64,000 bases of DNA from Escherichia coli (GTDB lineage Bacteria; Pseudomonadota; Gammaproteobacteria; Enterobacterales; Enterobacteriaceae). The notes beneath the pieces are model-generated. The model was not told the DNA's origin, searched no databases, and worked only from the letters and a program-made list of their open reading frames with translations. The stretch lies in the NCBI RefSeq assembly GCF_051903065.1, contig NZ_CP178438.1. One strand, given 5' to 3'. The position numbers and the translations under genes are program-made. Below are positions 47,041 to 51,698 of the stretch, in pieces; position 1 is the stretch's first letter; each line of letters starts with the position of its first letter.

Positions 47041-47466
47041 TTAACCTACATACCTCGTCCCATTCCAACGCAAGATTGTATCCTCGTCGCATAAAAGGTT
47101 GTGTACGCCATGATTCTTTTCTTTCATCAGGCTGATTTTGCTACAAAAATAATCAATGTTAATTTTGGAGTTATCCGGGGTCATAATACTGCAAGCCATA
47201 GTTGGTGCGTCACTCGCGGTATATCCACAATCGTCTTTCCCGCAGGCAGCGGGAGGCGTGGAGGGTGAATACGTGCAGTTAAGCGTTTCGGAAATGCCAT
47301 CATCGTTAATGTCGAGGGGACGGCTAATCTCATCGCTGTCAGTGCCTAATGTGGTTGCATCCAGGATGACGTTTGGTTTTTGTATCTCGCTTGTGGCCGC
47401 GTAATTGAAGCTGCTTGCGGCCATTATGCCTAGAGCTATGCCAATCCGTAAGGCTATTTTTTGCAT
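47041..47466 (-). CDS. small secreted Cys-rich protein of unknown function
   Basis: 141-aa ORF with N-terminal signal peptide (MQKIALRIGIALGIMAASSFNYA) and 6 Cys; its start overlaps the stop of the upstream gene by 13 nt; AT-rich. Confidence 0.6.
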   Translation of the reverse strand: MQKIALRIGIALGIMAASSFNYAATSEIQKPNVILDATTLGTDSDEISRPLDINDDGISETLNCTYSPSTPPAACGKDDCGYTASDAPTMACSIMTPDNSKINIDYFCSKISLMKEKNHGVHNLLCDEDTILRWNGTRYVG

Positions 47467-48749
47467 CCTGGTTCCTCTGTAATAATCATAATGTCTCTGT
47501 TTTGAACTTCACGCACATTCTCTTCTCTGACACGAGTTTTCGCCGGACAGGGGGATGGCGTAATCCTGACCTCTGTATCGGTCCAGGTATAAACATTGCG
47601 ATCGTCATAAGCGAAGCGATCGTTTTTAATTAGCGGGCCGTTAGTTGGAATAATTTGCACGCTCTTTGACCGTAATTGGCGGATAAAGTAAACATGTTGT
47701 TTGCCGCCATTAAATGAGTTATCAATGACCAGGTCTGGCGAATCCAGCGGAATTATTTCAAGCTGGTCTTCACCAAAAGTCGATAATTTTGTTACATACA
47801 GACGATCTTTATACTGCGCAATATTGCCAGTAATCAGATGAAATTGTTCAGGTTCAATATCCGGTAGGTCTATCCACTTGCTCCACTGACGGTCGGGCGA
47901 GAGCTGTTTACGCCAGCGAACGCGACTTTCCCCCACTTCAAAAGAGACGTCATCATCTACGGGTATCGCTTTGCCAGATAATTGCCCAAAGGGATAACGA
48001 TGCAGACCATTGTTGTCGCGAAAAACCAGCAGTGAATGAGGTATCCAGCGAATTATCTCAAATGAGTCTGCATTCGCCGTAAGGTGAACGCCATTTAAAT
48101 AAATATTCTGCCCACTGCGGATAAGCAGATCATTGGAATACAAATTTCTGTTTACACTCATAAGACGTGGATTAATACCCCACCATCTTTTTTCTAATAC
48201 AGTAACATTACTGCTGCTCCCCTGACGTCGACCGGACAAATAGAGATTTTTACTATCCACCAGCGTGGTAGAGTTACCTTCGATAGCTTTTAGTGTCGCC
48301 AGATCAACACGTGACGCGCCGCTATTACTTTCGGTGCGCTGTCCATCAAAATAGAGGCTATATTTATCGACCGCGAAGCGGCCCATAGCCTGAAAGCTGG
48401 CAATATCGACAGTGGGTATTCCCGGTGGATTGCTAACGATTTTGCCACGCCAGAGAATAACGCGGCCGTCTGTCACCCAGTGGTATTCCTCATTTTTTAT
48501 GCTTATTTCATCGGTGGGTATATAGCCTTCCACTAACTCCCGCTCCCCGGATATATTTGTCACAAGGCGCAAATCGGCTCTGTTCATCTTCGGAAATTGG
48601 GCAATGATTTTCTCATCCTCCCCATAACCTTTACCGTAAGACATGACACCGTGATCATTGTAATAGTCGAACCCTATGGCCTGTACAGCAGGTGTCAGAA
48701 ATGTGTGCCCCAACAGGATGAGTGCAACTGTGATTATTTGACCATTCAT
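47454..48749 (-). CDS. secreted DKNYY-like repeat protein, paralog B
   Basis: 431-aa ORF, signal peptide (MNGQIITVALILLGHTFLTPAVQA); recurring motifs (DKYSLYFDG, NIYLNGVHLTANADSFEI, DDRNVYTW); clearly homologous to the ORF at 48746-50224. Confidence 0.7.
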   Translation of the reverse strand: MNGQIITVALILLGHTFLTPAVQAIGFDYYNDHGVMSYGKGYGEDEKIIAQFPKMNRADLRLVTNISGERELVEGYIPTDEISIKNEEYHWVTDGRVILWRGKIVSNPPGIPTVDIASFQAMGRFAVDKYSLYFDGQRTESNSGASRVDLATLKAIEGNSTTLVDSKNLYLSGRRQGSSSNVTVLEKRWWGINPRLMSVNRNLYSNDLLIRSGQNIYLNGVHLTANADSFEIIRWIPHSLLVFRDNNGLHRYPFGQLSGKAIPVDDDVSFEVGESRVRWRKQLSPDRQWSKWIDLPDIEPEQFHLITGNIAQYKDRLYVTKLSTFGEDQLEIIPLDSPDLVIDNSFNGGKQHVYFIRQLRSKSVQIIPTNGPLIKNDRFAYDDRNVYTWTDTEVRITPSPCPAKTRVREENVREVQNRDIMIITEEPGCKK

Positions 48750-50224
48750 TTTGTCGCCTCATTGCGCGGGGCAGGAATAAATTCGCCGTCATCGGTAATT
48801 TTTCCGTCCAGATATCCCGTTTTGTAATTTACCCCGTAGCCATATCCCGAATGTTGTTCCTTCCAGATTAAGCGAACTTGTTTCGGATCAGCGGTGCGGT
48901 ATCGCCAGAGCTGCGCGCCATCAAAGCTGTAAACGTAGCGGTTATCGCGGGCATACCATCTGCGCAAAAAGGGATGGTCATTAAGATGGGCTTCGCGTTC
49001 ATCCGGAGAACGGTTATCCAGTAAGATCAGCGGTCCGTCAGATTCAAACACGTGTAAACCGGAATGGTATGGCCACCCTTCGGCACGCGTAAGTAAATAG
49101 CCGTGGCGTTTCCCGGCGTTGAAACGTTTGTTGATAATAAGATTGGGATCATCAAGTTTCACGATCTCCAGCTTGCGGTCACCAGACTCTGTTTCGATGA
49201 TGGTATAAAGCGAGTCCTGATACTGTGCGACAGCATCACTGATGGGGTGAAACTGTTCCGGATCGAGTCCGGGTAATTCTTCCTGTTTACAGTCAGGCCC
49301 CTGACGCCAGAACACTTTCTTTTCCAGCAGAGAAAAATCCAGACAGTGCTTTGTTAAATCTTCATCCCACGCCAGATTTTCCTTGTCGAGGACTTTACGC
49401 TGCAGCCCGTTTTTATCACGCCAGGTCAAGAGTGAGCCGGGCATCCAGCGCACGACGGAAAAAGTGTCCGGGTCGGCATCAAGCTGTTCGCCGTTGATCA
49501 GGATTTTGGTTCTTGTACGAGCCAGGGTATCCCAGGGGCCAAATGGCATAGCCACACAGGGATTAAACGCGGTAGAAAACTTTCCTCTTTGATCCCATGA
49601 CTTTTGTGCCAGCACACGGAAACTCTCGGGGTCAGCGAGGCGATGCCCATCGACATATAAGAAATTAGCGTCACGTAATATCAGCCCCAGTAAGTCAGGA
49701 TCCCAGGGAGGCCGGAATTCCACCTGATGCAGTGTTTTGATATCTACGCTATTTCCCCCGCCATTGTCATCGGTGCGCTTGCCTTCGAAATAGAGACTGT
49801 GTTTATCTGCGGCAAAATCACCCCATGCCTTGAACGAGGCGACATCGACGGGAGGTTTGTCTGGCGGGTTTTGCACAACTTCACCCGCGTAGAGGATATT
49901 GCGGCCATCGCTATGCCAGGAGTAATGAGGATACCAGGCTTGTGCGCCTTCATAGAGGTAGTCGGTTGTTAGATCAGTCAGAGGTGGTTCTTTATTCCAT
50001 TCATCTTGTGTTGTTGGGTCTATTAATAAATTGGGTAAACGGCGCAAACTCTTGTAATTCACGTCAGGTAGAGAAAGATTTGTTTCTTTATAAGGGCGCA
50101 GGTACACCACGCCTTTTCCCTGTTTCTGGTAAATATTATGTTCAGGTGCATCAAGCCGACATCCCCATGCCGACGATAAGAACAATGAACAAGCCAACAA
50201 ACAAACCACATTGCGATAGTGCAT
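48746..50224 (-). CDS. secreted DKNYY-like repeat protein, paralog A
   Basis: ORF 48746-50254 (GTG) trimmed to ATG at 50224 (MHYRNVVCLLACSLFLSSAWG signal peptide); motifs DKHSLYFEG, FLYVDGHRLADPESF, ILINGEQLDADPDTF, RDNRYVYSFDG; 4-nt ATGA overlap with paralog B. Confidence 0.7.
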   Translation of the reverse strand: MHYRNVVCLLACSLFLSSAWGCRLDAPEHNIYQKQGKGVVYLRPYKETNLSLPDVNYKSLRRLPNLLIDPTTQDEWNKEPPLTDLTTDYLYEGAQAWYPHYSWHSDGRNILYAGEVVQNPPDKPPVDVASFKAWGDFAADKHSLYFEGKRTDDNGGGNSVDIKTLHQVEFRPPWDPDLLGLILRDANFLYVDGHRLADPESFRVLAQKSWDQRGKFSTAFNPCVAMPFGPWDTLARTRTKILINGEQLDADPDTFSVVRWMPGSLLTWRDKNGLQRKVLDKENLAWDEDLTKHCLDFSLLEKKVFWRQGPDCKQEELPGLDPEQFHPISDAVAQYQDSLYTIIETESGDRKLEIVKLDDPNLIINKRFNAGKRHGYLLTRAEGWPYHSGLHVFESDGPLILLDNRSPDEREAHLNDHPFLRRWYARDNRYVYSFDGAQLWRYRTADPKQVRLIWKEQHSGYGYGVNYKTGYLDGKITDDGEFIPAPRNEATK

Positions 50225-50333
50225 AAAGCCATCCTGGCGCGAGGTGTTGATCACGATACTGCCAGCAGAACATAAATCCTCACACGTAAGCGTAATTCTC
50301 GCGGCAAATCGTCACTTTTCAGAATCCATAAAG
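50163..50333. repeat. direct repeat copy 1 (~171 bp): 5' end and upstream region of paralog A
   Basis: near-identical to 51245-51415 by eye (ccccatgccgacgataa...cacttttcaga..cataaag). Confidence 0.85.
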
Positions 50334-50590
50334 GTCATTGCTATTTTCTGATAGTTGCTGGGGTAAACGTGATGTTTTCATTCACGATATAAATACGAGG
50401 TACTGCGCCATGGTGTGACTGATCACGTTAAAATGTGCCGGGTTGACGCCGGGAAGGGGTTCAACATGCGACTCTGCCCCCGTTGCCTACTTTATTGTCT
50501 TTCGCGAGTTGTACCCATGTTCCACCACTGGTATCTAACATTCTCCACATTATTACGCTTTCTGCCGAATGTGATTTTTATAGAAATCTA

Positions 50591-51145
50591 TCAATTCATT
50601 TTCCCTGTGCCATAAATTTTATCCTTCACATCCTGCCGAACGCGGGTCTTGTACCCCCCGTTGTGAAGATCTTCATACGGAGAAAAAGAATCTTTACTCC
50701 ACCCCAGCAGCACTTTATCGCCAGGCATAAAATGCACATGCAGAAAATCTTCTCCCCATTCTCTTTTGGGGAGAGGTAACGTCATATTCCGTTTCTCCAG
50801 ACGCATTCCAGCATTATACTGTGTACGAGTAGTACTTAATGTCCAGATAACCTCTGCAGTATCCCCACTGACATCACCACAACAGGTTGTTGAACCTCCA
50901 CCATTTGCAAAAGCATTCGCGCCCGCCACGCCGTTAACACTGAATCCCAGTATCGGACGGTCAATTTCACTGTGGATTTCCAGAATCACTCCACCTCTTG
51001 GACCTCCCCATACTGCCTGCCCTATATTCCACAACACGACCAGTACTGGAACGACAATTAACGTCCGCCATACCCAGCGCCCCCAGCGGGCATAACCGCG
51101 CGTAAGCTTTTGGTCAAATTTTTCCAGTTGGGTAAATAGCCCCAT
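50591..51145 (-). CDS. membrane-anchored protein of unknown function
   Basis: 184-aa ORF, one N-terminal TM helix (WRTLIVVPVLVVLWNIGQAVW) then a Gly-rich soluble domain with a CC pair (GGGSTTCCGDVSGD); lies downstream of repeat copy 2. Confidence 0.6.
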   Translation of the reverse strand: MGLFTQLEKFDQKLTRGYARWGRWVWRTLIVVPVLVVLWNIGQAVWGGPRGGVILEIHSEIDRPILGFSVNGVAGANAFANGGGSTTCCGDVSGDTAEVIWTLSTTRTQYNAGMRLEKRNMTLPLPKREWGEDFLHVHFMPGDKVLLGWSKDSFSPYEDLHNGGYKTRVRQDVKDKIYGTGKMN

Positions 51146-51237
51146 CAGATTTTATTCCCTCTTATCACCAGGTTGGCAAAGTTGTATGTCACTAGCGACT
51201 AAGGTCAGACAACGAAATTGCATGGTGCGCCACTCTA

Positions 51238-51306
51238 TTAAAAGCCCCATGCCGACGATAAAAACAACGAACAAGCCAACAAACAAACCACATTGCGATA
51301 GTGCAT
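51238..51306 (-). pseudogene. 22-codon remnant of a DKNYY-paralog signal peptide
   Basis: minus-strand ATG at 51306 encodes MHYRNVVCLLACSLFLSSAWGF then TAA; first 21 residues identical to the paralog A N-terminus. Confidence 0.7.
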
Positions 51307-51415
51307 AAAGCCATCCTGGCGCGAGGTGTTGATCACGAAACTGCCAGCAGAACATAAATCCTCACGAGTAAGCGTTATACTCGCAGCATTTCCTCACTTT
51401 TCAGACTTCATAAAG
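51245..51415. repeat. direct repeat copy 2 (~171 bp)
   Basis: same orientation as copy 1, roughly 90 percent identical by eye. Confidence 0.85.
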
Positions 51416-51494
51416 AGTCGCTAAACGCTTGCTTTTACGCCTTCTCCTGCGATGATAGAAAGCAGAAAGCGATGAACTTTACAGGCAATCCATA

Positions 51495-51698
51495 ATGAAA
51501 AACGTGTTTAAGGCACTCACTGTATTACTTACTCTCTTCAGCCTGACGGGCTGCGGTCTGAAAGGTCCGCTCTATTTCCCGCCTGCAGATAAAAATGCAC
51601 CGCCGCCGACCAAACCGGTAGAGACGCAAACGCAATCCACGGTGCCGGATAAAAACGATCGCGCCACTGGCGATGGTCCATCCCAGGTGAATTACTAA
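51495..51698 (+). CDS. yifL: small lipoprotein YifL
   Basis: 67-aa ORF with lipobox LTGC (MKNVFKALTVLLTLFSLTGCGLKGPLYFPPADKN), immediately upstream of dapF. Confidence 0.85.
   Translation: MKNVFKALTVLLTLFSLTGCGLKGPLYFPPADKNAPPPTKPVETQTQSTVPDKNDRATGDGPSQVNY

Follow-up and report, generated by a model that had tools for sequence, protein, structure and literature searches.

Introduction

The DUF3304 proteins constitute the Tli1 family, immunity proteins that act against the T6SS Tle1 phospholipases, and this role was demonstrated experimentally in Pseudomonas, Klebsiella and Vibrio (PMC13133936; PMC5649205; PMC6691524). A model of P. aeruginosa Tli1a (PA3291) shows a periplasm-facing beta-sandwich bound to the catalytic domain of Tle1 (PMC13133936). 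The Tle1 immunity protein of K. pneumoniae is counted among the DUF3304 proteins (PMC13133936), and Tli1KP, from K. pneumoniae HS11286, is specified by a tandem array located upstream of tle1 and protects in competition assays (PMC5649205). In the Aux 5 cluster of V. cholerae, TliV1a is a Tle1-family immunity protein that includes a DUF3304 domain (PMC6691524). That T6SS immunity genes can exist as orphans, i.e., as homologs that are kept without the effector, is an established idea (PMC6730261; PMC12469244).

The gene described here, tli, is located in an E. coli stretch of 64,000 nucleotides that was analysed as a whole and is referred to as the window. Its relatives share with the genes of Tli1KP and TliV1a the location upstream of a DUF2235 effector, often in tandem (PMC5649205; PMC6691524), and its product shares with TliV1a the DUF3304 domain and the lack of a predicted cleavable signal peptide (PMC6691524). 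The AF2 model of the window protein and a V. cholerae DUF3304 protein compare with TM scores of 0.65-0.72, but the sequence identity is low (about 36%), and Tli1KP and TliV1a, unlike the window protein, act beside their own effectors. The predicted fold is also that described for Tli1a. However, PA3291 is an outer-membrane lipoprotein and the best-studied Tli1 proteins carry a lipoprotein signal, whereas the window protein has a transmembrane helix and no lipobox.

Results and Discussion

The window is a region of the E. coli chromosome that includes cyaA, cyaY, a variable segment (47041-51419), lptM, dapF, yigA, xerC, yigB and uvrD. Several complete genomes match the variable segment at 100%. 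The features identified within this segment are listed in Table 1. The product of tli is identical to RefSeq WP_000522556.1, which is named "DUF3304 domain-containing protein". The original prediction had described it as a membrane-anchored protein with one N-terminal transmembrane helix and a CC-containing Gly-rich domain, and both traits were confirmed. The sole hydrophobic segment comprises residues 28-46 (mean Kyte-Doolittle value of 1.9 over 19 residues), no other segment exceeds 0.85 in the scan, and the preceding N-terminus is net-positive (five K/R against two D/E). The AF2 model (pLDDT 89.2) consists of a long helix (residues 2-46), a seven-strand beta-sandwich (residues 53-150) and a low-confidence tail. 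Hydropathy and model predict an N-in, C-out protein in which residues 28-46 would serve as the inner-membrane anchor and the DUF3304 domain would be periplasmic. The motif GGGSTTCCGDVSGD (GGG..CC, residues 82-95) includes C88 and C89, the only cysteines in the protein. In an alignment of 45 family members C88, C89, G75, N77, G84, W101, T106, P126 and F139 were invariant or nearly so, and the first five were conserved in at least 90% of the sequences. Therefore, the GGG..CC motif is a hallmark of the family rather than a chance occurrence.

Table 1. Features of the tli region, with positions numbered as in the window.
Feature	Position	Strand	Details
tli, orphan Tli1-type (DUF3304) immunity gene (probable)	50591-51145	minus	ATG start, 184 aa
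Cassette-derived upstream flank	51146-51223	minus	last 35 nt of the DUF4123 adaptor (51223-51189) and 43-nt spacer
DUF4123 adaptor internal remnant	51218-51245	minus	28 nt, codons ~193-202
tle1 5' remnant	50461-50550	minus	29 codons (MWRMLDTSGGTWVQLAKDNKVGNGGRVAC*), 40 nt past the tli stop
Upstream leader copy	51245-51419	minus	5' untranslated region and first 22 codons of the DKNYY-like lipoprotein signal peptide
Stub ORF	51306-51238	minus	MHYRNVVCLLACSLFLSSAWGF* (22 DKNYY-like codons, then stop)
Downstream leader copy	50163-50336	minus	heads the intact 502-aa DKNYY-like gene
DKNYY-like paralog internal remnant	50400-50480	minus	..LPGVNPAHFNVISHTMAQY; right edge of the replaced gene

A relation to DUF3304 had been suggested originally with low confidence, and it proved correct: the protein belongs to the DUF3304/Tli1 immunity family. 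Its match to Pfam DUF3304 (PF11745) is modest (E 2.4e-4, 21.9 bits; residues 63-145 aligned to positions 6-95 of the 97 in the model), and 40 of the 45 aligned relatives matched the same profile at E <= 0.001, the best at 1.5e-11. When the AF2 model was compared to AFDB50 with Foldseek, the top 50 matches were almost all DUF3304 proteins (probability 1.0) from Enterobacterales, Halomonas, Pseudomonas, Vibrio, Burkholderia and Xanthomonas. In a sequence search of the PDB and a Foldseek search against it, E <= 0.001 was reached by none of the matches, all of them generic transthyretin-like sandwiches, and no solved relative was found. The NCBIfam equivalog for Tli1a (NF053804) aligned only to residues 62-93 and scored 20.1 bits, far under its cut-off of 110, which indicates that the protein is not an ortholog of the Pseudomonas Tli1a.

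Relatives that share 51-95% identity with the window protein are found in cassettes with the order vgrG, DUF4123 adaptor, tli (one to five copies) and tle1, which are present in E. coli, Salmonella, Citrobacter, Enterobacter, Erwiniaceae and other genera. DKNYY-like genes are absent from all of these loci. Such cassettes were found in Citrobacter farmeri (locus L002; Tli 65% identical to the window protein), Salmonella enterica (L009; 70%), an ST131-type E. coli (L016; 69%), E. coli EC-129 (L017; 94%) and, within a full T6SS cluster, in a member of the Erwiniaceae (L006; 61%). Two tli copies precede tle1 in Enterobacter cloacae (L004; 58%) and in another S. enterica locus, where they code for 184 amino acids each (L008; 84%). 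The highest identity, 95% (175/184), was found in E. coli KC-Dl-1 (L045). The window protein and the cassette-borne proteins of KC-Dl-1, EC-129 and S. enterica L008 have the same length, the same N-terminal transmembrane anchor and the same C-terminal tail, and colinearity of the DNA extends past both ends of the gene. While the order in Salmonella and E. coli T6SS clusters is tssH, vgrG, DUF4123, tli and tle1, the window copy has no vgrG, adaptor or effector gene, and it occupies a core-genome site (cyaY-lptM), where it lies within a disrupted DKNYY-like gene.

When species-representative genomes were scanned, 27 loci were obtained. Of these, 26 came from species other than E. coli, and the remaining one, on an E. 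coli-like contig, was organised like the window. In every non-E. coli locus with a readable downstream region tle1 directly follows one to five tandem tli genes, with the exception of L044, from Erwinia psidii. In this locus (6001-6368) tli is fragmentary, with residues 45-158 in two pieces, and vgrG, the adaptor and tle1 are missing within 6 kb. The locus represents a second orphan, this one decayed and from a different genus. The longest arrays have five tandem tli genes (Citrobacter sp. JGM124, L035 4759-7675) and four (Enterobacter asburiae, L031 2952-5312) upstream of a single tle1. Two loci were found in contigs with unexpected labels. The enterobacterial tli locus in L018, labelled as a Collinsella sp. 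MAG, shares 99% identity with the E. coli orphan locus, and L039, labelled as a Candidatus Paceibacterota MAG, carries an enterobacterial tli locus with genes that score like those of a Morganella locus (L038). Both are probably cases of binning contamination in public MAGs.

Two of the E. coli cassettes show signs of rearrangement or damage. The annotation of KC-Dl-1, whose cassette is the nearest to the orphan, splits tle1 into two CDSs of 152 and 493 amino acids (L045 6041-7991). This effector may itself be inactivated and, given the split, the toxin that matches the orphan Tli may be rare or decaying in E. coli. In EC-129 (L017 4131-4993) an additional 3' end of the DUF4123 adaptor (..YLNGKKAYLESVEFQAVLEKVKRNEMSLSDLGQE*) is located between a truncated second tli and tle1. 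This is a recombination scar, and the cassettes are rearranged internally.

Searches with VgrG, DUF4123 and Tle1 proteins (tblastn) detected none of the corresponding genes in the whole 64-kb window. Nonetheless, tli is surrounded by pieces of a cassette. The region 51223-50462 (764 nt) is colinear, at 92.8% identity, with positions 5368-6131 of the KC-Dl-1 cassette, in the order last 35 nt of the adaptor, 43-nt spacer, tli, 40-nt spacer and first ~89 nt (~30 codons) of tle1. The spacer that precedes the tli ATG carries a Shine-Dalgarno sequence (AAGAGGGAA), and the upstream flank is also 93.4% identical to EC-129. The internal remnant of the adaptor, which is joined to the 3' remnant through a deletion of ~184 nt, is 92.9% identical to L017 3287-3314 and L016 5711-5738 (E 2e-6) and 89% identical to L045 5156-5183. 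On the other side, the tle1 remnant is frameshifted by two 1-nt deletions and the rest of the effector is absent. At the protein level it matches residues 1-27 of Salmonella Tle1 (tblastn, E 1.4e-4); at the DNA level it matches "DUF2235" genes of two E. coli strains and is colinear with the start of the KC-Dl-1 tle1. These results demonstrated that tli originated in a T6SS cassette and that the effector was lost.

The site occupied by the fragment could also be determined. The original prediction had placed tli behind a duplicated leader, and there are indeed two copies of 171-175 nt with 92% identity. At the left junction, the coding sequence of a DKNYY-like signal peptide meets the cassette fragment at codon 22. 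At the right edge, the translation of 50480-50400 matches residues 319-345 of the 502-aa paralog encoded in the window; blastx E values are 6e-5 to this protein and to the 489-aa protein of L014, and 3e-6 to the 685-aa protein of L015. Thus, a ~790-nt cassette fragment took the place of codons ~23-326 in a third DKNYY-like paralog located upstream. Since this extra copy had its own leader, which was retained, the leader is now found twice, and the adjacency of tli to the DKNYY-like genes is explained by the landing of the fragment inside one of them. Campbell-type integration of a circle with the 175-nt segment was considered because the segment is single-copy at the empty site, and it was set aside because the DKNYY-internal remnant at the right edge fits better with replacement in a duplicated paralog. 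An inverted-repeat search found no terminal inverted repeats, which makes a transposon-type insertion unlikely. The Rfam search over 50000-51600 had no match, indicating that the duplicated leader is not a known RNA element; PADLOC had no match either, and the promoter/terminator scan gave no hit on the minus strand of the leader, where a consensus sigma-70 promoter was thus not found.

In genomes such as Q5 and PRO_A-1474, which lack tli, two DKNYY genes with one leader are located between lptM and cyaY. This arrangement either is ancestral or arose when the two 175-nt repeats recombined, and under both origins the tli and DKNYY families are separable. In K-12, all that is left at the same site is ~266 nt of the first DKNYY-like gene. 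The DKNYY-like genes (47454-50254, minus strand; L013, L014 and L015) are themselves variable: between strains they share 89-91% DNA identity or are replaced by a single 685-aa gene, and the flanking core genes are far less diverged (97-100% identity). The Pfam DKNYY match of these lipoproteins is marginal (E 0.006-1.8). The end of the 431-aa gene is overlapped by an open reading frame of 141 amino acids (47041-47466, minus strand) with an N-terminal signal-like segment and several cysteines; its product carries a hypothetical annotation and matched no NCBIfam model. The sequence beside cyaY differs or is missing in many island-bearing genomes, and the 141-aa gene is absent in L013 and L014.

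The distribution of tli was surveyed in 5,426 complete E. coli genomes. A tli gene with at least 90% DNA identity was found in 1,163 of them, and the tli-flanking remnant, used as the orphan marker, was found at 80% coverage or more in 1,079. The difference between these figures approximates the number of close cassette-borne alleles, and the orphan is present in ~1,080 genomes, about a fifth of the total, including O104:H4, O111 and O26 isolates. Partial matches to the flanking remnant, among them two sampled tle1 starts of the KC-Dl-1 type (H207 and H208), were found in about 42 genomes. The 74%-identical ST131-type copy, which lies beside tle1 in the locus examined, was the only tli in 510 genomes. 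Any match to Salmonella tle1 was found in 620 genomes and the EC-129-type tle1 in 43, none of them a window-identical record; a closely matching tle1 is present in about 1-2% of the complete genomes. All 27 sampled full-length orphan-type rows had a single tli place, strain S51 (tli 100% identical to that of the window) also had only one, and overall there were 1,746 places in 1,673 genomes. These counts imply that most orphan carriers have no second tli and, hence, probably no same-clade cassette. Judging from counts and samples, the orphan genomes probably lack any tle1.

These findings led us to propose the following pathway. As shown above, a ~790-nt fragment of a vgrG/DUF4123/tli/tle1 cassette replaced most of the upstream DKNYY-like copy between cyaY and lptM; the tli gene that it brought remained intact, bordered by leftovers of the adaptor and of tle1. 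Transcription of tli would start from the retained leader of the truncated copy and proceed through the stub, and translation would depend on the cassette's own Shine-Dalgarno sequence. The protein would then be anchored in the inner membrane, its N-terminus cytoplasmic and its DUF3304 beta-sandwich periplasmic. As judged from the characterised members of the family, this domain would bind the catalytic domain of a Tle1 arriving from the T6SS of a competitor, block the hydrolysis of membrane lipids and make the cell immune to a toxin that it does not produce. The binding and inhibition of Tle1 are assumed by analogy with Tli1a, Tli1KP and TliV1a. Taken together, family membership, the gene context of the relatives, the cassette origin, the conservation of tli and the loss of the effector make it likely that the gene is an orphan Tli1-type immunity gene. 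By the same analogy, the fifth of E. coli that keep tli without the toxin most likely do so as a shield against Tle1-bearing neighbours.

Alternatively, tli could be a functionless relic that hitch-hiked with the decayed cassette, has not yet accumulated disabling mutations and is of no use to the cell. In favour of a relic, decay is evident in the adaptor and tle1 pieces beside it, few E. coli genomes have cognate-type effectors and the leader yielded no promoter in the scan. However, nearly every carrier has an intact copy of the gene itself: the 1,673 tli-type matches, counting orphan and cassette-borne copies alike, include 1,666 with a coverage of 80% or more, and the copies sampled are annotated as intact CDSs. 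Pairwise dN/dS values were 0.03-0.24 among four orphan alleles and 0.14-0.22 between orphan alleles and the EC-129 cassette allele. In three pairs of orphan genomes the identity was 98.0, 96.4 and 92.3% for tli and 93.7, 84.4 and 83.2% for the tle1/DKNYY remnant beside it, which also included indels; in the same genomes, tli is ~2.5-4 times less diverged than its flank. Conservation of tli next to a decayed flank, together with low dN/dS, is the pattern expected of purifying selection after the loss of the neighbours. The low dN/dS, the intact reading frame and the more diverged flank thus point to maintenance of the orphan by selection, and we regard the relic as improbable. Selection could also act on a repurposed domain, with the orphan Tli in a different periplasmic role independent of T6SS, such as modulation of an endogenous phospholipase or envelope process. 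The retention of tli in genomes without the toxin and its wiring into a lipoprotein operon are compatible with such a role, but a protein still 94-95% identical to cassette-borne immunity proteins, with all family-invariant residues in place, makes it quite improbable.

The original prediction had taken the gene for an immunity-like partner of the adjacent paralogs. The immunity character stood, DUF3304 being the Tli1 family, but the partner expected is Tle1 and not the DKNYY-like proteins. A role as immunity protein, chaperone or receptor-like cognate partner of these lipoproteins had been suggested by the location of tli, directly upstream of the paralogs in the same orientation and behind a copy of their leader, and this adjacency persists in variants with different DKNYY genes (L011 and L015). 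The co-occurrence expected of such partners was not found: none of the 26 non-E. coli tli loci includes a DKNYY-like gene, the E. coli loci L013 and L014 have the DKNYY pair and a single-copy leader without tli, and nearly all E. coli, K-12 included, keep a DKNYY remnant at the site, at least the first ~266 nt of the gene, regardless of tli. The gene thus occurs independently of the paralogs across genomes, and the insertion into a paralog copy already accounts for the adjacency. A DKNYY partnership is largely refuted by this distribution and is the least probable of the explanations considered, with hardly any likelihood left. A false lead is thereby removed, and no immunity partner of the DKNYY-like paralogs was identified at the locus.

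Under the preferred reading, an orphan Tli1-type immunity gene, a function that can be tested is assigned to a gene that is widespread in E. coli (~20% of the complete genomes) and annotated only as DUF3304. If correct, strains without the toxin could be resistant to a T6SS toxin through a gene located outside the T6SS loci, which surveys limited to T6SS clusters would miss, and the orphan could affect competition in the gut between E. coli and Tle1-armed Enterobacterales. A more ambitious proposal sees the orphan as an anti-Tle1 shield domesticated by a fifth of E. coli, uncoupled from T6SS, driven by the promoter of an unrelated lipoprotein operon and subject to repeat-mediated on/off polymorphism. 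In this joint form it is possible but rather doubtful. If it holds, the shield would defend its carriers when Salmonella, Citrobacter, Enterobacter or rare E. coli strains attack with Tle1; the flanking 175-nt direct repeats would permit clean loss of tli by homologous recombination and its regain through recombination of the flanking sequences, generating at the population level an on/off polymorphism for toxin resistance.

The E. coli orphan resembles the immunity arrays of V. cholerae and the acquired interbacterial defence clusters of Bacteroidales in that an immunity homolog without effector is close to alleles of true pairs found elsewhere. Unlike these, it is a single gene outside a T6SS cluster and has no recombinase. 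Particular to it are the core-genome site far from the T6SS cluster, the unrelated lipoprotein operon and the 175-nt repeats. The DUF3304 literature and targeted searches, whose coverage is incomplete and which are weak evidence on this point, contained no description of the locus. One of the orphan alleles (L011 8001-8555) differs from the window protein in residues 103-113, where LDMTHEQYLKG replaces LSTTRTQYNAG. The same patch is present in the Tli of another lineage (P0123), and P0079 has LDITHEQYLKG. Comparison of these sequences suggests mosaic recombination in one surface element, which is possibly a specificity determinant.
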